From contig JAZNQN010000044.1 in NCBI GenBank assembly GCA_045590195.1, positions 19,186 to 83,185 of the forward strand: DNA of 64,000 nt. The letters run 5' to 3'. The first letter of the stretch is position 1; every line of letters begins with the position of its first letter. Below the pieces are notes generated by a model. The model was not told the origin of the DNA and made no database searches. It saw only the letters and a program-made list of their open reading frames with translations. Position numbers and translations under genes: made by a program. Below are positions 1 to 13,959 of the stretch, in pieces. This stretch comes from Clostridia bacterium (GTDB lineage Bacteria; Bacillota; Clostridia; UMGS1883; UMGS1540).

Positions 1-495
1 GATGAAGAACAAAACAAGCTCTACATCAGAACAAACATATACAGAGATAACGGAGAATTAAAAGAAGGTAAACCTAAAACGGACGAGGGCGAAAGATGCA
101 TCATACTGCCAAAGGCAACTGCGGATATGTTAAAACAGCGAAGGCGGATATCAAAATGGATATTCCCGAACCTGACAACTCCTGGATTACCCATAGCACC
201 GGAGGCAGCCTACAGAAAAGCAAAACTGATTCTAAAAAGTCTGAATCTGCCGAACATATCCTTCCATGACCTACGACACACCTTCGCAACACATGCCATA
301 GCAAGCGGTGTAGATGCAAAAACACTATCAACGATACTTGGACATACAAACCCAAGCTTCACCCTCGACACATACACACATGTAACAACAGATATGCAAC
401 AAAAAGCATCAAATATAATAGAAATCTTTATGGAAGATATACTCGGAAAGGAGATGAAACCATGGCAAGACGAAAAAGCGGACAAGGAACAGTAA
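1..495 (+). CDS. Tyrosine recombinase / phage-type integrase, 5'-partial (ORF continues upstream of window start); C-terminal catalytic domain
   Basis: Frame 1 is open from nt 1. Contains the box II catalytic motif 'HDLRHTFATHAIASGVDAKTLSTILGHTNPSFTLDTYTHV' (R..H..R..Y tyrosine recombinase signature). Overlaps the next integrase gene by 34 nt in a different frame. Confidence 0.8.
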   Translation, partial: DEEQNKLYIRTNIYRDNGELKEGKPKTDEGERCIILPKATADMLKQRRRISKWIFPNLTTPGLPIAPEAAYRKAKLILKSLNLPNISFHDLRHTFATHAIASGVDAKTLSTILGHTNPSFTLDTYTHVTTDMQQKASNIIEIFMEDILGKEMKPWQDEKADKEQ

Positions 496-1889
496 GACTC
501 AGAAAAGATGGTCGATGGGAAGGCAGAATTGTAATCGGTTACGATGAAAATGGTCTTCCTAAGACAAAAAATGTAACAGCCAAGACAAAAACGGAATGTA
601 TTGAGAAGCTGGAAAAGCTCAAAGATGAAACAGGTTTTATCCGCAGAGAAAAAGTGCATAGCAGAATGACCTTCGGTGAATGGATGGACTTCTGGTATCA
701 GAATTACTGCAAAATGCGAATAAAGGAATCAACTCAAGAGGGCTATGAAACAAGAATATATAATCATATAATCCCCAAGATAGGAAAAATTCCCCTAAAT
801 GAATTGACTCAAAATGACCTGCAGAAATTCTACAACAGCCTTAAACAAGACGGCAGACTGAGATATCGGGATACGCTCGGCGAAGGACTGTCCGACAGGT
901 TCGTGCGAAGCTGCCATGCAAACTGCAGAACTGCACTTCAAAAGGCAACGGATGACAGACTTATAAAAAAGAATCCTGCAATAGGCTGCAAGATACCACC
1001 TAAAAAGTCAAGAGAGATGCAGGTGCTGACGCCGGATGAAATTAAAAGGTTTCTTATACAAGCAAAATATGACGGATTCTTCGAAATCTTCTTAGTAGCC
1101 TTATCTACAGGCTTACGGCGAGGAGAAGATATGGCACTAAAATGGGAAGACTTAAACCTCGATACAGGAGAACTAAAGGTGCGAAGACAAGTCAAACGGA
1201 CAAAAGGCAGATTGGTCATAACAGAGCCAAAGACAGAAGAATCGGTAAGAACGATAATACTACCCAAAAGCCTTGTAAACATCCTGAAGGAATATAAGGA
1301 AACAATAGACTCAGAGTGGATGTTCCCATCACCAAAAGTTGAAGGGATGCCAAGAGATCCCTCAGCAGTATATGGAATGATGCAGGTAATATTAGAAAGA
1401 GCAGAATGTAAAAAGCTTCGATTCCACGATCTCCGCCACACCTTCGCAACCACATCGGTAGCAAACGGAATGGACATCAAAACCTTATCCACCATCCTCG
1501 GACATGTATCAAGCAAAACAACACTTGATATATACCTGCACAGCACCGAGGAAATGAAGAAAGAAGCGGCTGAAAAGATTAACGCCCGATTCAACAAGGA
1601 TACAAACGGTAGCGAAGAAACAATCACAGAAGAACAAGAGAAGCCTCCGCAAGCCAAATTTGAGCCTAAAAAGGGCAAGATGAGAAAGCCCGGCACAGGA
1701 TGCATCAGTAAGATAAACGACCACCTATACGAAGGAAGATACTCGCCAAAGGATGACTACGGCAAACGAATGGCAAGAAACATATATGCACCGACAAGAG
1801 AAGAATGTGAAGAAAAGCTCGGCATACTGATAAAGGAAATGAAAGCCGAAATCGCAGAACAAAAAGCAAAGCTCAAAAATGCAAAATAA
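462..1889 (+). CDS. Tyrosine recombinase / integrase with N-terminal AP2-like arm-binding domain and a C-terminal repeat of that domain
   Basis: N-terminus 'RKDGRWEGRIVIGYDENGLPKTK..ECIEKLEKLK' is the Tn916/phage Int AP2-like DNA-binding type. Catalytic motif 'RFHDLRHTFATTSVANGMDIKTLSTILGHVSSKTTLDIYLHS'. The ~100-aa C-terminal tail 'LYEGRYSPKDDYGKRMARNIYAPTREECEEKLGILIKEM' is homologous to its own N-terminal domain. Confidence 0.85.
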   Translation: MARRKSGQGTVRLRKDGRWEGRIVIGYDENGLPKTKNVTAKTKTECIEKLEKLKDETGFIRREKVHSRMTFGEWMDFWYQNYCKMRIKESTQEGYETRIYNHIIPKIGKIPLNELTQNDLQKFYNSLKQDGRLRYRDTLGEGLSDRFVRSCHANCRTALQKATDDRLIKKNPAIGCKIPPKKSREMQVLTPDEIKRFLIQAKYDGFFEIFLVALSTGLRRGEDMALKWEDLNLDTGELKVRRQVKRTKGRLVITEPKTEESVRTIILPKSLVNILKEYKETIDSEWMFPSPKVEGMPRDPSAVYGMMQVILERAECKKLRFHDLRHTFATTSVANGMDIKTLSTILGHVSSKTTLDIYLHSTEEMKKEAAEKINARFNKDTNGSEETITEEQEKPPQAKFEPKKGKMRKPGTGCISKINDHLYEGRYSPKDDYGKRMARNIYAPTREECEEKLGILIKEMKAEIAEQKAKLKNAK

Positions 1890-1894
1890 CACAA

Positions 1895-1932
1895 ATGGCA
1901 CGGACATAAAAAAATCCGTGCCATAGCTTTTG
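1895..1932 (+). terminator. Rho-independent terminator after the integrase gene
   Basis: 10-bp stem atggcacgga/tccgtgccat with an A-rich loop, followed by agcttttgg. Confidence 0.5.
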
Positions 1933-2035
1933 GTGTATTAAATTTTGATACGCCTTAAACAAAGAAAAAGACTTTGTCCCACAGTTGAAGATGAAAAAAT
2001 GTGGTCAAACTCGTTTTTTTGACATTTTTTTAGAC

Positions 2036-2073
2036 AAATCAAAAACCTCAGAAACCGCTTGGTTACTGAGGTT
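2036..2073 (-). terminator. Hairpin terminator downstream of tRNA-Pro
   Basis: Stem aacctcag/ctgaggtt followed on the minus strand by a T-run (tttgattt). Confidence 0.4.
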
Positions 2074-2078
2074 TAAGG

Positions 2079-2156
<78 letters not shown>

Positions 2157-2200
2157 TATAAAATATTTGGTTTTTTCTATATTCCCGTATCTGTGGGATA

Positions 2201-2231
2201 ACATGTGGTCAAAACTTATTTGACCACATGT
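2201..2231. repeat. Perfect 13-bp-arm palindrome acatgtggtcaaa-actta-tttgaccacatgt; a related imperfect copy lies at 1999-2026 on the other side of the tRNA
   Basis: Read directly from the sequence. Both copies share the atgtggtcaaa...tttgaca core and bracket the intact tRNA-Pro. Confidence 0.6.
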
Positions 2232-2317
2232 ATTTTGTTTTTTTAGTCACCGTAAAGTGGCATTGTTAAAAGGTTTGCGGGAGTTCGGCTGATTACTAAT
2301 GAATTGAATAGTACCGT

Positions 2318-2357
2318 GTCCCGAACGATGCGCGCTACCAAACTGCGCTACACCCCG
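2318..2357 (-). pseudogene. Partial tRNA-Pro copy: 5' half through the anticodon loop only
   Basis: Reverse complement CGGGGTGTAGCGCAGTTTGGTAGCGCGCATCGTTCGGGAC matches the D-arm and anticodon arm of tRNA-Pro. It diverges immediately after the anticodon loop, with no T-arm or acceptor 3' strand. Confidence 0.7.
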
Positions 2358-2443
2358 TAACAACCTAAATTATTATAGCACAGAGAATACATAAAGTCAA
2401 ATATTTTTTTAAAGGTGCAACAATTTGTTGCACCTTTAATCAG

Positions 2444-4204
2444 TTATTCCGCAATCATATATTCGCCAATAAACAATATTTCTTCGTTTGTATTATCACG
2501 AATTACAAAAGTAAATGGTTTATCAAATTTTACTTCGATTGGCTCTGTTGGCGCAGAGGCAGCACCTGCCATCATTATTGCAGTTACAGCTGCAGCTTCA
2601 GTTCCTTTTTCGTCAACATTTATATACGTTTTATGAAGTATTTTATCTATGTACATATTAAACTCGTCTTTTTTATCAAACATCTTTTCAAATTCAGCCT
2701 CAAAGGCATCAAAGGCCTTAATTATACCGGCATTTTTCAAAATATCGTTAAGCTCTATTGATGTTTCGATTTTGAATTTCGGCACATAAAGATGAATTCT
2801 TTGACCTTTCATTCTGCCAAGACCAATAATATTTTCCAGTTCAGCTACCCTATTCTCATAATCTGTCATCATTATATACATACTTATATTTACATTATCA
2901 CGATGAAAATCGGCCACAGAGCCATCATCATTTAAAGTGTGAGTAGTACTCTCATAAGGTAACTCTATTACAGTTGTTTTATCATCAGCAAAATACATAA
3001 AATTAGCTGTGTTTTGCATAAATTCAGCTTTTGAAACTGTTCCGTCGAAATTATAAAAATTATCTTTAGAGGTTAATTCTTCTTCAAATTCATTATTCCA
3101 GTTTCCGCTGAAATATACCGCATTTATAAGTGCGGCCCAAAAATCAGCGCTATTTATAATTTCAGGAATTTTTTCGTTTGTTTTATCCGAAACCCAGTTA
3201 TTTATTGTTTTAACAGCATTTTTTCTGTCAACCTCTTTTGCCTCAGCACCATAATAGGAATACACTGTGTCTTTATATGTTCTTGAAAAATTTTTGGTGC
3301 TTTCATCCTTATTAAGCCAAATAGAATTTGCAATACTAAGCTTAACAGCTTTTGCCTCTAAATAGCTTTCAATTAAAGACTTTGCAGTTTCATTATACTG
3401 AGCTATATCATAAATTTCGGCAACTTCGCTTATTTCTTTATAAGTTTCGCCCTCTGCCCCGTTTGCTGCAAGCGCAAGAGCCATTTTAATTGAAAGCGGC
3501 GAAAACATATAGTTACTATTTTTCGGCATACCGCTATTTAAATCATCTGCAAAATAACTTTTGGCAGGTGTACCGCCAAATAGTATTCCTTCAAAATCAT
3601 TTTGTGTGTAAAGTCCCTTATCAATTAGCTTTTTATAAAGCATTTGTCCGTCAGCACATTTTGATGTAAGAGCGCTGCGGCAAAGCCTTGTTACATCACT
3701 TCTTAAAAGACTGTAATTTCCTTCAACAACGCTTTTGGTAAAATTATTGTTTATTACATCTGCAGCTTTTCCAATTTTAAGAGCGTTTTCAATTGTAACT
3801 TCAGAATATCCCATAACAGTCAATAAAATTTTTAAAAACTCTTTTCCCGTAACAGTTCTTTGCGGCTGAAAAGTAGTAGCTGATGTACCGTCAATATAGC
3901 CTGCTATGTAAAATTTTTCTATAACATCGGCCGCCCAGTGGCCTTTTACATCTTCAAACGGGAAATCGGCCATAGCTATGTCACTAAATGCTACTCCTGT
4001 TGTGCGCCAGATGAAAGTTAGCGCTTCTGCACGAGTTACCTCTCTCTCCAGTTCATAACCAATATCTGTACCCTTTAAAATGCCAAGTATTGCCATACCT
4101 TCTGCACCGGTATCAATAGGTATTTCTTCCCTTGGTAAGATTGCTGCCGAAGCAGATACGAAAAGCATTAAGGCAGCTAACAATAAAGCAAATATTTTTT
4201 TCAT
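2444..4204 (-). CDS. Secreted serpin (serine protease inhibitor) with N-terminal signal peptide and SLH-like cell-wall-anchoring repeats
   Basis: Signal peptide MKKIFALLLAALMLFVSASA. SLH-like repeats (..VTRAEALTF.., FEDVKGHWAADVIEKFYIAGYIDGTSATTFQP..VTGKEF). Serpin core from 'MFSPLSIKMALALAANGAEGETYKEI' to the C-terminal signature 'KPFTFVIRDNTNEEILFIGEYMIAE'. RBS GGAGG. Confidence 0.8.
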   Translation of the reverse strand: MKKIFALLLAALMLFVSASAAILPREEIPIDTGAEGMAILGILKGTDIGYELEREVTRAEALTFIWRTTGVAFSDIAMADFPFEDVKGHWAADVIEKFYIAGYIDGTSATTFQPQRTVTGKEFLKILLTVMGYSEVTIENALKIGKAADVINNNFTKSVVEGNYSLLRSDVTRLCRSALTSKCADGQMLYKKLIDKGLYTQNDFEGILFGGTPAKSYFADDLNSGMPKNSNYMFSPLSIKMALALAANGAEGETYKEISEVAEIYDIAQYNETAKSLIESYLEAKAVKLSIANSIWLNKDESTKNFSRTYKDTVYSYYGAEAKEVDRKNAVKTINNWVSDKTNEKIPEIINSADFWAALINAVYFSGNWNNEFEEELTSKDNFYNFDGTVSKAEFMQNTANFMYFADDKTTVIELPYESTTHTLNDDGSVADFHRDNVNISMYIMMTDYENRVAELENIIGLGRMKGQRIHLYVPKFKIETSIELNDILKNAGIIKAFDAFEAEFEKMFDKKDEFNMYIDKILHKTYINVDEKGTEAAAVTAIMMAGAASAPTEPIEVKFDKPFTFVIRDNTNEEILFIGEYMIAE

Positions 4205-4254
4205 ATTATACCTCCTTTTTCCTTTTTAGACGAGCAGTTTTAAAAAAAGTTCCA

Positions 4255-4295
4255 AAAAACCCAAAAAATCCGCCAAGGCGGATTTTTTGGGTTTA
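4255..4295 (-). terminator. Rho-independent terminator after htrA
   Basis: Stem aatccgcc-aa-ggcggatt flanked by A/T runs (cccaaaaaatccgccaaggcggattttttggg). Confidence 0.6.
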
Positions 4296-4318
4296 GGGAT
4301 ATATCTATGAAAACGTGG

Positions 4319-5638
4319 TTATTGCGCTTTTGTAGTATCTTCGCCAAGAACAACCGAAACATCCATTGCAGAGCCGTTTCTGTTGATTTTAAGAGTTATA
4401 GTGTCGCCTGCTTTGTGTGAATCGCGTATTTCATTAAGGCCTTCGGAGCTTGTAACTTCCTGTCCGTTACAGGAAATAATTATATCACCCTTCATAATTC
4501 CGGCTTTTGCAGCACCTGTTCCCTCTGTAACTTCTACAACAAAAAGTCCTTTTGCAGGGAGATTGTAATAATAAGCTTCCTGCTCGGAAACATATCTTAC
4601 TGAAAGCCCAATAAGCGGACGGCCTTTTACATAGCCAAAGTTAATAAGGTCTTCAATAATAGGTTTTGCATCACTTATTGGAATTGCAAACCCAAGGCCT
4701 TCAACCCCGCTTGAAGAAACCTTAACCGAGTTAATGCCGATAACTTCGCCAAATTCGTTAACAAGCGCTCCACCGCTGTTACCAGGATTAATTGCAGCAT
4801 CTGTCTGAATCATTTTATAGGTTCTTCTGTCAACAGTAACAGTTCTGTTAACGGCACTTATAATACCCTGAGTAAGCGAGCCTGCAAACTCAAGCCCTAG
4901 TGGATTACCGATTGCAACAACTTTTTCGCCTGCTTCAAGATTTGTGCTTTCACCAAAAACAGCCGCAGGAAGATTTGTTTCCTCTATTTTAATTACCGCA
5001 AGGTCGGTTTTTTCGTCGCCACCAATAAGTTTTGCCTCATATTCTTTTCCTGTATTTAAAACAACTTTAACCGAGGTTGCACCTGCGATTACATGGTAGT
5101 TTGTAACAATGTATCCGTTCTCTGTAAAAATAATACCTGAGCCACTACCTGATGAAACATCTGAGAAAAAGCCCTGATACTGAACTGTGCTGACAATTCC
5201 AACTACTGATGGGCCAACAAGTTTTCCAATATCAACTGTTGACAACACTTTTCTGTCGTCTTTATTATAAGTTACGGGCTGTGCATTTGTTTTGTTTTCT
5301 TCGATTTGTGAAGTTCCAAATGAAAACTGCTGCATATTTCCGTTTTGCATAAGGCCGCTGATTACAGGCGATACAAGCGAAAAAATGAGAGCTCCCATTA
5401 TTGCGCTGACCGTTGCAACAAGCCAGGTTTTGGGCTTTTTATGCTTTTTCTCTCTTTTTATATTCTGCTTATAAGAAGAAACAACCACAGGATAAACATC
5501 ACCTTTTTTAAATCTGTAAGAAGTATCTTCATCTATTGTAAAGAAAGATTGTTGATTTTCATTTTCCAATGTTTCTGCATCAAAAGCCATATTTGCTTCT
5601 TCTTCAGAAAAATTGTTGTTTTCAAAATTTTCTTGCAT
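4319..5638 (-). CDS. htrA: Membrane-anchored HtrA/DegP-family serine protease (S1C) with PDZ domain
   Basis: Trypsin-like motifs 'TNYHVI', 'DAAINPGNSGGALVN' and a C-terminal PDZ domain. N-terminal acidic cytoplasmic segment then a TM helix (WLVATVSAIMGALIFSLV). Start set at the ATG (MQENFEN) preceded by AGGAGAG rather than the upstream GTG of the ORF track. Confidence 0.85.
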   Translation of the reverse strand: MQENFENNNFSEEEANMAFDAETLENENQQSFFTIDEDTSYRFKKGDVYPVVVSSYKQNIKREKKHKKPKTWLVATVSAIMGALIFSLVSPVISGLMQNGNMQQFSFGTSQIEENKTNAQPVTYNKDDRKVLSTVDIGKLVGPSVVGIVSTVQYQGFFSDVSSGSGSGIIFTENGYIVTNYHVIAGATSVKVVLNTGKEYEAKLIGGDEKTDLAVIKIEETNLPAAVFGESTNLEAGEKVVAIGNPLGLEFAGSLTQGIISAVNRTVTVDRRTYKMIQTDAAINPGNSGGALVNEFGEVIGINSVKVSSSGVEGLGFAIPISDAKPIIEDLINFGYVKGRPLIGLSVRYVSEQEAYYYNLPAKGLFVVEVTEGTGAAKAGIMKGDIIISCNGQEVTSSEGLNEIRDSHKAGDTITLKINRNGSAMDVSVVLGEDTTKAQ

Positions 5639-5723
5639 AGTTTCTCTCCTTTGTTTTATTTGATTTAATTTTAACACTTAATTATTATCAATCTATGAAC
5701 AAACTTAAAAAAAAATTTAAAAC

Positions 5724-7139
5724 CTAGGCTTTTTTTAGTTTAAACTTAAATCTTGCCCACCTGTCTTTTTCGCTTTCAACTAAAATTTTTTCGCCGTGAT
5801 TTGCCAAAATGCTGTGAACCATAAAAAGCCCTAATCCCATACCATTTTTATCATAGCTACGAGATTTATCTGACTTATAAAATCTTTCAAACACATGGCT
5901 TATTTCCTCAGGGGTAATACCAATGCCAGAATTTTCAACAGAAATATCAACCTTTCCTCCCGAAGCTCGCAATACTTTAATTTTTATATATCCGCCTTCA
6001 AAATTAAATTTAATTGCGTTATCGATAAGGTTAGTCATAACCTGTGAAATTGCATCTTTATCGGCGAAAACAAATTCGTTTTCATTTTCAAATTCAATAT
6101 CAACATCAATTTTTTTCTCGTTAATCTGATTTTCAAATCTTAATATAGTTATTCTTACAAGCTCGTTAATATCAAAGCTTCTTGGCGAAAGCTTCATAGT
6201 GCCCGATTCAATTCTGGAAAGGTCTAAAAGTTTTCCAACAAGCCTTGCAAGACGTTTTGTTTCATCAAGAACAATTTTCAGGTATTTATCCTTATCTTCT
6301 TCTGAAATAGTTCCATCAAGAATCCCCTCAACAAAACCTGAAATTGTAGTCATAGGCGTTCTAAGTTCGTGAGAAACGTTTGAAATAAAATCAGAACGCA
6401 TATCTTCAAGGTTTTTTAAAGAATCGGTCATTTTATTAAAGTTTTCAGCAAGTTCCGCAATATCAGTATTCCCTTCTGCCCGAACTTTCAAATCAAAATT
6501 CCCTTTTGCTATTTCTTTGGAAATTTTATTCATTTCCATTATCGGCCTTGATATTCTTTTAGAGTAAAAATAAAGCATAACAACAACGCCGAAAAAAACG
6601 ATAGTTATTGTTGTAAGAAAGGTTTTAACAAAATAATACTTTTGCTGATTAACAACCGGAGATGGAACAGACAAAAAAGTTGCCCCTACAATAGAGTTAT
6701 TCCCTTTAAGAGGAATTCCAACCGTTAAATATGTCCCCTTAAAAAGGCCGTTCATATTACCAATCTGCAAAAAATCGTTACCATCTAAAACCTTTTTGGC
6801 AATTTTATCTTCAGGAACTCTGTCTCCAAAATGCTTCGATGCATTGTTGCTGGTTAACAGATTTCCATACCTGTCCATAATATACACAACGCCGTTTACT
6901 TTGCTTGCAGAATCGTTTAAGCTTTTTTTATAAAGCTTTTCAACAGTAGGCGTTCTGTTTGACAGATAAAATATCGTAAGGTCATTTATTCTTTCTGCTT
7001 CATCTCTTAAAATGTCGCCTTTTTCATTTATAAAAAAGTCGCCTAAAAAGCCAAATAAAACAGTTCCCGTAACAATTAAAAGAACAAGCGTTATAATTAC
7101 ACTTACAAATATAATTCTCGAGTAAATTGTTTTAAGCAT
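5724..7139 (-). CDS. Sensor histidine kinase (two TM helices, HAMP, HisKA, HATPase_c)
   Basis: H-box 'SHELRTPMTTI'; N, G1 and G2 boxes 'NLIDNAIKF', 'GMGLGL'; N-terminal TM helices flanking an extracytoplasmic loop. Confidence 0.85.
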   Translation of the reverse strand: MLKTIYSRIIFVSVIITLVLLIVTGTVLFGFLGDFFINEKGDILRDEAERINDLTIFYLSNRTPTVEKLYKKSLNDSASKVNGVVYIMDRYGNLLTSNNASKHFGDRVPEDKIAKKVLDGNDFLQIGNMNGLFKGTYLTVGIPLKGNNSIVGATFLSVPSPVVNQQKYYFVKTFLTTITIVFFGVVVMLYFYSKRISRPIMEMNKISKEIAKGNFDLKVRAEGNTDIAELAENFNKMTDSLKNLEDMRSDFISNVSHELRTPMTTISGFVEGILDGTISEEDKDKYLKIVLDETKRLARLVGKLLDLSRIESGTMKLSPRSFDINELVRITILRFENQINEKKIDVDIEFENENEFVFADKDAISQVMTNLIDNAIKFNFEGGYIKIKVLRASGGKVDISVENSGIGITPEEISHVFERFYKSDKSRSYDKNGMGLGLFMVHSILANHGEKILVESEKDRWARFKFKLKKA

Positions 7140-7838
7140 TTACTTCACCTCAAACTTATATCCTACTCCCCACACAGTTTTAAGCGACCAGCCTTCATCA
7201 ACGCCTTCAAGCTTTTCACGAAGCCTTTTTACATGAACATCAACCGTTCTTGAATCGCCAAAATAATCAAAATCCCAAACTTCACCCAGCAGCTGTTCTC
7301 TAGTAAAAACGCGGTTTGGATGAGATGCAAGAAAATATAAAAGCTCGAGTTCCTTTGGCGGAACATCAATTTCTTCTTCCTGAACGCGAAGCTCGTAATT
7401 GTTAAGGCTTATGTAAAGCCCGGGAAGGGAAACCTCGCCATTATCGGCTTTGTCAGCTTTATTTTCAAATCTTCTTAAAACTGCCTTTATTCTTGCAGAA
7501 AGCTCTTTTGCCTCAAAAGGCTTAACAATGTAGTCATCCGCTCCCATTTCGAGCCCTAAAACTTTGTCAAATGTTTCGCCTTTGGCAGTAAGCATAATTA
7601 TCGGAACATTACTCTCTGCCCTGATTTCTCTGCAAACTCTTATTCCATCGATTTTAGGAAGCATAATATCAAGCACTATAAGGTCAGGCGATGCTGATTT
7701 AAACTTTTCTATTGCCTCTTCGCCATCGTATGCAAACAAGGTTTCATAACCTTCTTTTTTAAGATACAAACCTATAAGGTCGCAAATATTTTTATCATCG
7801 TCAACAACCAAAATTTTCGTTTCGTTCATTAAATTCAC
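7140..7838 (-). CDS. OmpR-family response regulator (CssR/VicR-like)
   Basis: Receiver domain 'ILVVDDD...DLIVLDIMLP'; winged-helix C-terminus 'VWGVGYKF'. Confidence 0.85.
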   Translation of the reverse strand: MNLMNETKILVVDDDKNICDLIGLYLKKEGYETLFAYDGEEAIEKFKSASPDLIVLDIMLPKIDGIRVCREIRAESNVPIIMLTAKGETFDKVLGLEMGADDYIVKPFEAKELSARIKAVLRRFENKADKADNGEVSLPGLYISLNNYELRVQEEEIDVPPKELELLYFLASHPNRVFTREQLLGEVWDFDYFGDSRTVDVHVKRLREKLEGVDEGWSLKTVWGVGYKFEVK

Positions 7839-12955: not shown

Positions 12956-13959
12956 CTCCTTCTTCTACAGCCGAGTATTTTGCCATTTCTTCCTGAAGCT
13001 TTAATATAAAGTCGCTTTTTGCAAAAGCATCTGCCTGCTTTATTGTATGCATTATAGTTTTTGCATCACTTGTTCCGTGAGCTTTAATAACGCATTTTGT
13101 AACTCCAAGGAAAGGCGCACCGCCATATTCTTTGTAATCCATTTTTTTCTTAAGTTTATAAATACCTTTTTTAAGCATCAAAGCTGCAAGTTTTGAAACA
13201 ATACCGCTTAAAAAAAGTTCTTTAACATTTTTGAAAAGCACAAGACCAGTGCCTTCAGTTGCCTTGAGAAGAATGTTTCCTGAAAAACCATCGCACACAA
13301 CTACATCGCACGCGCCCATCACAGGATCTCTTCCCTCAACATTGCCAACAAAATTAAGGCCGCTGTTTTGTAAAAGTTCATAAGCTTCTTTAACAAGCTC
13401 GTTACCCTTACCGGCTTCAGCACCAATATTTAAAAGGCCGATTTCAGGGTTTTCTTTTCCTAAAACCCTTTGTGCATAAATTGAGCCCATAATTGCAAAT
13501 TCAAGCAGGTTTTTGGGTTTACAGTTTGTGTTTGCACCTGTATCAACAATAATAAAATTATCTTTATCGCTTGGAAGAGTTGGCACAAGAGCAGGCCTTG
13601 AAACGCCCTCAATTCTTTTAAGAAAGTGAATAGCACCGGTTAAAAGAGCACCTGTGCTTCCGGCAGAAACTAAAGCATCTGCCTTCCCCTCTGCAAGCAG
13701 ATTAAAAGCACGAACCATGGAAGAATCTTTTTTAGTTCTGATGGCCGAGGTGGGTTTATCATCGTTTGTAATTACCTCGGTTGCATTTATAATTTCAATT
13801 TTTTCTTTGTCATATTTTTCGTTTGCAAGGATATCGGAAATAGTTTTTTCTTCGCCTACAACTAAAATTTTACCGTCAATAACCAAAGAAGCCATAGCAG
13901 CTCCACGAACTATTTCCTTTGGGGCATTGTCGCCGCCCATTGCGTCAATCGCAATAACC
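12936..13959 (-). CDS. plsX: Phosphate acyltransferase PlsX
   Basis: '[12 protein letters not shown]' N-terminal motif. Start placed at the ATG preceded by GTGAGGTG rather than the upstream GTG. Confidence 0.85.

Follow-up and report, generated by a model that had tools for sequence, protein, structure and literature searches.

What kind of mobile element carries two overlapping integrase genes near its edge, and where does it recombine with the chromosome of its host? The question is raised by a 64,000-nucleotide (nt) stretch of DNA from a Clostridia bacterium (contig JAZNQN010000044.1, positions 19,186 to 83,185), here called the window, which opens with the tyrosine integrase genes int1 and int2, followed by a tRNA-Pro gene; coordinates are those of the window unless a related locus (L number) is named. 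We take int1-int2 to be the integration module of an integrative island found in gut Clostridia, and bases 1–2327 to be the right end of this island; we consider this explanation, taken as a whole, rather probable. The island is a tRNA-targeting integrative element that departs from the classical type in three ways: its integrases form a co-evolving pair, one of them carries a C-terminal duplicate of a small domain, and the target tRNA gene is replaced instead of repaired.

The 3′ part of int1 occupies positions 1–495 of the plus strand, in frame 1; the start of the window cuts the gene, leaving 164 of its approximately 386 codons with the stop at 493–495, and a full-length orthologue in locus L070 (8874–10034) encodes 386 amino acids (aa). 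The complete int2 gene (462–1889, plus strand) starts with an ATG at 462, ends with a TAA at 1887–1889 and encodes 475 aa; its Shine-Dalgarno sequence, GGAGA, lies at 450–454, separated from the start codon by 7 nt (455–461). The open reading frames confirm the initial annotation of this DNA, which had described tandem integrase paralogues with a 34-nt out-of-frame overlap (462–495), and both peptides that it quoted are present. Pfam searches detected a Phage_integrase domain (PF00589) in the Int1 fragment (E = 9.5e-16) and at residues 188–364 of Int2 (E = 5.8e-26), where it is preceded by Phage_int_SAM_3 at 70–127. The part of Int1 within the window carries the catalytic Lys, HxxR, His and Tyr, and all six catalytic residues of the protein are invariant in 71 distinct orthologues; those of Int2 (R219, K257, H322, R325, H348 and Y358) are kept in 86 distinct orthologues, except for a single R325H. 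The PF00589 match and the retained catalytic residues place both predicted proteins in the tyrosine recombinase superfamily, as paralogous integrases of about 36% identity. The structure nearest to the Int2 model is the Tn1549 integrase (6emz, E = 7e-16), chains of which make up the top six Foldseek matches (E from 7e-16 to 4e-13); by sequence, a Tn916/Tn1549-type integrase ranks third for Int2, after XerA. A hairpin terminator lies 3′ of int2 (1897–1922) and is kept in relatives. On the coding strand of both genes (window 1–2000) A greatly exceeds T, with an AT skew of 0.30–0.48.

For comparison, related loci were drawn from genomes (79), from IMG/VR (77) and from about 30 contigs with exact homologues. 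An Int1 orthologue lies directly upstream of Int2 in nearly all of the approximately 110 loci that include upstream sequence, with the two genes overlapping by 34 or 4 nt or separated by a gap of a few bases. They diverge in parallel from the reference, identities of 96, 82, 74, 57 and 51% for Int2 being matched by 97, 83, 65, 53 and 46% for Int1. No third recombinase stands beside the pair in any locus fetched, and upstream of int1 the full copies of the window lineage (for example L070) contain only the gene for a 185-aa secreted protein of Flg_new type. We therefore regard int1-int2 as a co-inherited, translationally overlapping pair, whose products are predicted from their residues to be catalytically complete and both possess an additional N-terminal domain.

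Several variants of the module were also seen. The small secreted protein is encoded just upstream of int1 in several lineages (L070 8047–8604; L003 8179–8721), with a signal peptide, a Listeria-Bacteroides repeat (Flg_new, E = 3e-11) and a weak match to DUF6550. One Int1 of 447 aa (L002, 2251–3594) has an excisionase/AlpA-like HTH_17 domain fused to its N-terminus (E = 1.1e-7); other lineages encode HTH_17 as a separate 69-aa gene upstream. Single hybrid integrases with the front of Int1 and the back of Int2, including the tail domain described below, were found in L080 (1523–2911) and in database proteins P0018, P0043 and P0045, apparently formed by recombination between the paralogues in the HDLRHTFAT region that they share.

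Past its catalytic Tyr358, Int2 runs on for 117 aa, comprising a variable linker of about 25 aa (residues 373–397; 1578–1652, plus strand) and a domain of about 78 aa (residues 398–475; 1653–1886, plus strand). This tail domain resembles the N-terminus of the same protein, with 18 identities over 47 positions in BLASTP (E = 2e-6), and a profile-profile comparison of the two domain alignments with hhalign matched 55 columns with a probability of 97.8% (E = 8.5e-13). AlphaFold2 predicted (mean predicted local distance difference test, pLDDT, 77.8) a strand-strand-strand-helix arrangement at residues 9–57 (strands 9–13, 19–27 and 33–40, helix 43–57), and repeated it at 414–474 (strands 414–419, 422–427 and 439–443, helix 446–474); the linker has a pLDDT below 50, and the tail domain modelled alone reaches 80.9. 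The N-terminal copy (462–632, plus strand) sits where arm-binding domains are found and is, by position and predicted fold, a candidate arm-binding domain.

Is the tail a property of this gene or of the family? A search of 5.8 billion proteins returned at least 7,999 significant matches to Int2, and coverage of its 475 aa is 97% or more for 108 of the best 120, at identities down to about 60% and with lengths of 459–535 aa, mostly 471–506. Thirteen tail residues are invariant in a 46-sequence alignment (F400, R408, T412, G413, G425, P429, G434, K435, Y442, C449, E450, L453 and I457), in which the linker is poorly conserved. A profile of the tail domain matched 1,342 cluster representatives (clusters at 50%) with E ≤ 0.001, 697 of them with E ≤ 1e-10; among the best 150 of the 1,342, mostly short fragments, the match usually ends at the C-terminus or within a few residues of it, and in the near-full-length proteins of that set (468–543 aa) it lies 3–27 residues away. 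On these alignments, the tail is a genuine duplicate of the N-terminal domain, conserved throughout the family, and the duplicated domain is probably DNA-binding. Of the two explanations first offered for the tail, the novel two-arm-binding architecture is thus favoured, since the extension is present family-wide in homologues and is homologous to the N-terminal domain, with binding by both copies as a prediction. Arm-binding domains are placed only at the N-terminus in a 2021 classification of tyrosine recombinases (PMC8138268), whose extra features are limited to the two core-binding domains of RitA and the C-terminal helix of RitC (PMC8138268). The literature searched contained no description of an integrase with a C-terminal extra copy of its N-terminal domain, and full-text searches on tandem or paired integrases yielded nothing about the Int1-Int2 family.

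The attachment site was located by comparing the sequence around the tRNA-Pro gene among loci. A complete tRNA-Pro(CGG) gene (2079–2155, minus strand), found by ARAGORN and Rfam (69 bits), belongs to the element: both of its halves are of element type and its acceptor stem co-varies between loci. Directly 3′ of it, a hairpin between an A-run and a T-run (2041–2074) is identical in relatives. The right junction of the element lies further on, at 2319–2327, where the crossover region TCCCGAACG corresponds to the anticodon loop of tRNA-Pro; in about 20 loci compared, element-type sequence stands to its left and host-specific sequence to its right. The left side consists of a degenerate copy of a terminator and tRNA 3′ half (2232–2318, minus strand) that is conserved among loci and forms the core-proximal att arm. 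At about 105 nt, this arm has the length of the real terminator plus 3′ half, and its counterpart in L079 is still called as a tRNA by ARAGORN. The right side is the 5′ half of a disrupted host tRNA-Pro (2328–2357, minus strand), which differs between loci and gives way to unrelated flanks; homology of all relatives to the window stops at 2357–2377. The chimera at the window junction, which includes this host remnant, is not called as a tRNA by ARAGORN. A promoter, TTGACT-17 nt-TGnTATAAT (2372–2400, minus strand; 11 of 12 consensus positions), follows the remnant, and TATAAT-like boxes occur at equal distance in the flanks of other loci. As this near-consensus promoter follows at the right distance, the remnant is to be read as the gene of the host itself, interrupted within the anticodon loop. 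The initial annotation was therefore correct in drawing an element boundary beside tRNA-Pro; its att site next to that gene was near the mark, except that the complete tRNA is the element's own and the junction lies 160 bp further right, in the broken host copy.

The same order recurs in the window and about 20 relatives: int2, its terminator, a 45-bp repeat, optional cargo, a terminator with the complete tRNA-Pro, and then about 35 nt, CTGTGGGATAAC, a palindrome, the degenerate terminator and 3′ half, TCCCGAACG, the locus-specific tRNA 5′ half and unrelated DNA. This layout also occurs at tRNA-Pro(TGG), in the isolate genome of a Pseudoflavonifractor (L035) and in a human-gut element. The core, of 7–9 bp, is identical at both element ends and reads TCCCGAAC(G/C) or TCCCAAA according to the isoacceptor.

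Both ends could be followed in L094, a complete 13.2-kb element that contains Int1 and Int2 between one pair of junctions. Its left end reads host terminator, host 3′ half, TCCCGAACC and arm, and its right end reads its own tRNA-Pro(AGG), TGTGGTC motifs, degenerate 3′ half, TCCCGAACC and host 5′ half. When the host halves are joined, the anticodon and acceptor stems pair perfectly and ARAGORN calls a tRNA-Pro(cgg). Likewise, the joined flanking halves of a decayed element, L113, are called as tRNA-Pro(tgg), and the junction chimeras (attL, attR) are not called as tRNAs. Reciprocal recombination with halves of the target at both ends, by which tRNA-targeting elements are recognised, was thus found in L094 and L113. 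We had also considered L113 as a working mini-element with one integrase; this was rejected, because the N-terminal part of its Int2 is ruined and overlapped by a helicase fragment. Judged from these sequence comparisons, elements with int1-int2 recombine with the chromosome in the 7-nt anticodon loop of tRNA-Pro, which is predicted to leave two non-functional half-tRNA chimeras, and a complete tRNA-Pro gene is brought in by the element, close inside its right end. The spare is not like-for-like, because the L094 element breaks a tRNA-Pro(CGG) gene and carries tRNA-Pro(AGG) (in reverse complement, tRNA at 13340–13416 against host halves at 300–346 and 13573–13612). Since the host promoter at 2372–2400 now points across the remnant 5′ half and the degenerate arm towards the element's tRNA, this tRNA may be expressed from it as a long precursor.

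The element's own tRNA-Pro can itself become a target, as in L084 and L085, where a second island is inserted at the anticodon loop of the first element's gene. Units of about 200 bp (tRNA 5′ half, 35 nt, TGTGGTC motifs, degenerate 3′ half) occur in one to three tandem copies to the right of the element tRNA, at window 2156–2357 and in L010, L047, L080, L022, L174, L175 and L180, with one L175 unit coming from another element lineage. Entry of islands into the tRNA-Pro of earlier elements, as seen in L084 and L085, would explain these stacks of leftover units.

Mobility among hosts is evident from the distribution of the family. Int2 at least 96% identical to that of the window occurs in metagenome-assembled genomes (MAGs) labelled Congzhengia, Ructibacterium, Ornithomonoglobus, Ruminococcus, Acutalibacteraceae and others, many of whose contigs break within the integrase genes. 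Element DNA is 93–95% identical between loci and the right flanks differ; the window flank at 2359–14000 matches none of the other loci. Two further lineages occupy at least three or four chromosomal contexts each, and homology always stops at the anticodon loop.

Two classes of repeated motif flank the core. The first is a direct repeat of about 45 bp (..TGATACGCCTTAAACAAAGAAAAAG..), a candidate arm-type site, whose right copy lies at 1935–1976 (plus strand), with variable cargo inserted just after it in relatives, and whose left copy lies at the left end of full elements (for example L070, 7925–7975). The heart of this repeat, (T)AAACAAAGAAAAG, is about 265 bp from the core on both arms of L094 and 350 bp from it in the window; in L094 the CAAAGAAAAG motif is likewise found on both arms at about 265 bp from the core, as well as at internal module boundaries. 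The second class consists of TGTGGTC-type repeats, which every lineage examined carries on both arms at 90–130 bp from the core. To these are added a half-site, ATGTGGTCAAAC, with a degenerate inverted partner, TTTGACAT (1999–2025, plus strand), found in an 11-mer search, and, at 2191–2231 (plus strand), CTGTGGGATAAC followed by a perfect 13-5-13 palindrome, ACATGTGGTCAAA-ACTTA-TTTGACCACATGT, a candidate recombinase-binding site that is conserved across loci. The palindrome is built from ATGTGGTCAAA and also scores as a plus-strand terminator; perfect copies of the 11-mer ATGTGGTCAAA number three in the 64 kb (at 1999, 2203 and 2219), and a span of 230 bp around the tRNA contains them all. A search for the CTGTGGGATAACATGTGGTCAAA motif in viral contigs gave no match. 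Two motif classes and three small domains would fit arm-type binding.

We propose that Int1 and Int2 would assemble on the core as a hetero-tetramer, in the manner of XerC/XerD, each catalysing one pair of strand exchanges, a reading drawn from the coupling of the genes, their co-divergence and the apparent catalytic completeness of both proteins. The N-terminal domains of Int1 and Int2 and the tail of Int2 would bind the two classes of arm motif, TTAAACAAAGAAAAG at about 265–350 bp from the core and the TGTGGTC(A) repeats at about 90–130 bp. The tail domain may help to build or lock this large (about 600 bp) attachment-site complex and, because it follows the catalytic domain, would reach DNA from the face opposite the N-terminal domains.

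A number of results weigh against this explanation. Neither small domain of Int2 is matched by any Pfam or NCBIfam arm-binding or AP2 model, even at E ≤ 10, so that of the labels proposed beforehand Phage_int_SAM_3 and Phage_integrase stand and Arm-DNA-bind does not; equally, the supposed second AP2-like copy of about 110 aa is real as a duplicate and has no Pfam or NCBIfam match as an AP2 domain. The 117 residues after Tyr358 have no Pfam, NCBIfam or PHROG match, and residues 2–56 match a PHROG endonuclease weakly. Profiles of the two small domains found no match among PDB sequences, Foldseek of the tail against the PDB returned nothing significant, and its comparison with predicted viral structures gave weak matches only, to phage integrases, a GIY-YIG protein and an AP2/ERF protein (best E = 0.016). 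As for the pair, Int2 occurs without Int1 in L031–L034, L041 and L056, and so could function by itself in certain lineages.

The left end of the window lineage raises a further difficulty. Its conserved DNA begins at a constant position of the left 45-bp repeat and gives way leftward to unrelated sequence (L070 7925, L009 7984, L017 1064, L022 7965, L023 1344, L029 623). The full junction pair is seen in the relatives L094 and L113, and only the right junction in the window lineage: no host tRNA 3′ half, core or core-proximal arm was found within 8–10 kb of the left end with blastn-short or regular expressions. The initial annotation had pointed upstream for a third recombinase and the other att repeat; in window-lineage relatives that sequence contains the rest of int1, the second copy of the 45-bp repeat, no third recombinase and, within 8–10 kb, no tRNA 3′ half. 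A strong hairpin and T-run precedes the left end by 4–14 nt in five or more unrelated flanks, and by 42 nt in L070 and L080. We rejected these hairpins as part of the element, as closely related elements carry unrelated ones. L070 and L080, as well as L009 and L013, share left flanks and differ in their right flanks. Two readings may be considered. The left flanks may be cargo of larger composite islands whose true left junction is further away; in L094, 10 kb separate the left junction from int1. The L002 left flank carries a gene for ribosomal protein L27, which is hard to fit to that reading. Alternatively, the window lineage may have a non-canonical left junction.

Products of the reaction also proved elusive. 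An exact 26-mer of the window host flank had no match in metagenome contigs, so no empty site was recovered, and exact-protein look-ups of the window Int2 and of an HtrA-like protein encoded in the flank returned no record. A pattern for the junction of a circular form, in which the right end would continue into the left, gave no matches; terminal repeats were found in none of the 18 complete IMG/VR contigs, and three small virome scaffolds labelled 'Bacteriophage sp.' that contain the pair are linear fragments.

Could the two integrases perform different reactions, one at the tRNA-Pro loop and the other at the 45-bp repeats, for cargo exchange or the resolution of tandem islands? The direct repeats bracket the secreted-protein gene, int1 and int2; cargo begins right after the right repeat, and unrelated DNA stops right before the left one in at least five independent flanks. 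The CAAAGAAAAG motifs at internal module boundaries of L094, the existence of tandem islands and of stacks of one to three leftover units, and the loci with Int2 alone also point in this direction. However, the tight translational coupling and strict co-divergence of the genes better fit an obligate partnership, no product of a second reaction was seen, and the repeats, lying about 265 bp from the core on both arms of L094, are where arm-type sites are expected and need no second reaction. We consider such a division of labour possible, if on balance unlikely.

The hetero-tetramer that we prefer can also be stated in a stronger form, in which the partnership is obligate, each heterodimer has three small DNA-binding domains that read the two classes of arm motif, the tail projects from the catalytic face, and cassettes are exchanged between two breakpoints; this combination we regard as doubtful. 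If true, an obligate hetero-tetramer would represent a new intasome needing no host bending factor or setting its own directionality, and, in the window lineage, two breakpoints, in the anticodon loop and at the tRNA 3′ end, would replace the host 3′ half in a natural cassette exchange by two recombinases.

It is very improbable that Int1 and Int2 come from two elements that landed side by side at one tRNA. Tandem tRNA-Pro islands do occur in the family (L084, L085), but the order of the two genes is constant, their reading frames overlap or abut with no att site between them, their divergence is parallel from 98% to about 45% identity, and the complete L094 element has both genes inside one pair of junctions.

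We give equally little credit to a transposon with several tyrosine recombinases and no classical att site, of the RIT, Tn554 or SE type. RIT, Tn554, SEs and GInts are the recognised multi-recombinase elements (PMC10214605), and RIT (RitABC), Tn554 (TnpABC), SEs (IntA-Tfp-IntB-Srap) and GInts resemble int1-int2 in that their recombinase genes overlap in tandem. In Tn554 and SEs an ordinary recombinase is accompanied by a large one (PMC10214605), as in the overlapping operon studied here, with an Int1 of about 386 aa, an Int2 of about 475–500 aa and an overlap of 34 or 4 nt. Nevertheless, those systems depend on a third or fourth protein and show terminal inverted repeats or 6-bp footprints, and nothing of the kind was found here: only two recombinases are present, with no adjacent third gene of the TnpC, Srap or Tfp kind, and the element ends are direct repeats of the tRNA core instead of the inverted repeats of RIT. 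RitA-C and the Tn554 TnpA subgroup belong to the simple class, Xer-like in the case of RIT (PMC8138268). Int1 and Int2 both have an N-terminal extra domain, which would put them with the arm-binding-domain class (the 'complex' recombinases of Smyshlyaev et al. 2021), the structure nearest to Int2 is Tn1549 Int, and the ends share an identical 9-bp core within a tRNA gene, with joined flanks that rebuild the host site. The likeness to RIT and multi-integrase elements suggested at the outset was accordingly not sustained.

That the Int2 tail is the truncated start of a third integrase, fused to int2 or produced by a recent local duplication or frameshift, can practically be dismissed: the tail does resemble an integrase N-terminus, and frameshifted or hybrid Int1-Int2 fusions exist in databases (P0013, P0016, P0018, P0043), but homologues do not end after the catalytic Tyr, 108 of 120 covering nearly the whole query at identities down to about 60%, the 13 tail residues are invariant where the linker varies, the tail profile recurs in 1,342 cluster representatives with C-terminal placement usual in the best 150, and a terminator follows the int2 stop codon.

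How does the int1-int2 module compare with single-integrase systems? Tn916 and Tn1549 have one integrase plus Xis, use many AT-rich targets and tolerate non-identical overlaps. The elements described here resemble them in their Firmicute hosts and in the order of small N-terminal, SAM-like core-binding and catalytic domains, and differ in that two integrases are used, one of which carries a second small domain at its C-terminus, and in that the core, within the tRNA-Pro anticodon loop, is strictly defined. By its nearest structure, Int2 would fall in the IntTn916 subgroup, but the low target specificity with non-identical coupling sequences of that subgroup is not seen. With lambda, P4 and HP1-type systems the elements share an anticodon-loop crossover, a symmetrical anticodon stem as core, a large att with repeated arm motifs, and an integrase gene at the island end facing the tRNA; an anticodon-loop sublocation for tRNA-targeting integrases was reportedly defined by Williams in 2002. 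Classical tRNA elements, however, use one integrase, carry the 3′ part of the tRNA and regenerate the gene, whereas here there are two integrases, neither junction is a tRNA and a whole tRNA-Pro is carried instead. XerC and XerD are likewise two paralogous, complete tyrosine recombinases, each of which could occupy half of the core, as Int1 and Int2 might; unlike these, they lack arm-binding domains, are encoded by unlinked housekeeping genes and act at dif. Two tyrosine integrases are also annotated in actinobacteriophages such as Bowser and Oregano of Gordonia, in genome announcements that give no mechanism, linkage pattern or C-terminal domain and were compared with int1-int2 by description only.

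The islands differ mainly in what they carry. A slot between the int2 terminator and the tRNA contains 0.3–2.3 kb of unrelated low-GC DNA in 19 loci, with defence-like and other genes, for example AIPR, TetR with a membrane protein, a CDF transporter and a metallophosphoesterase-like protein. Two distant lineages contain an excisionase-like HTH_17 protein, HTH_36, a relaxase, an RdRP-like gene, Int1, Int2, AAA_15/RloB cargo and tRNA-Pro. The relaxases are MobL in L084–L091 and PF03432 with a NikA-like protein in L172–L181, and since these larger relatives carry a relaxase, together with the HTH_17 protein, they are predicted to be mobilizable elements. In the window lineage, full copies (L070) have no relaxase gene in the interval from the left repeat to the tRNA; the window itself holds the right end only. 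The RdRP-like gene encodes a protein of about 1,020 aa with a weak PF05183 (RdRP) match and is a recurrent cargo (L084–L091, about 1660–5610; L172–L178, about 1930–5870; reverse complement of L094, 4048–6948), accompanied in two lineages by a protein of about 290 aa of no known family; it may be a defence system.

Beyond the junction, the host flank of the window encodes on the minus strand (2444–7838) a serpin anchored by S-layer-homology domains (Serpin, E = 1e-83, plus SLH). Beside it are genes for a 452-aa HtrA-like protease (Trypsin_2 and PDZ by Pfam) and a histidine kinase/response regulator pair; a surface-anchored bacterial serpin adjoining a protease is an uncommon pairing. The G+C content is 0.37–0.46 over window 1–2000, compared with 0.31–0.36 in most of the serpin gene (2444–4204) and 0.37–0.40 at its far end.

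The Int1-Int2 family is large, with at least 7,999 homologues and single 90% clusters of up to 11,520 members, annotated only as 'site-specific integrase'. Breaking the host tRNA and bringing a spare runs counter to the textbook rule by which elements that enter tRNA genes repair them, and leaves a signature by which such islands can be found, a complete tRNA-Pro followed by a 5′ half about 200 bp later. Tyrosine integrases are tools for genome engineering, and a defined core of 7–9 bp with long arms could serve for site-specific insertion in Clostridia. A co-evolving pair with a third small domain at an unprecedented position offers a natural experiment in the assembly and directionality of recombination complexes. 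Tyrosine integrases are also engines of gene flow among gut bacteria, and this family moves defence genes and other cargo between gut Clostridia.

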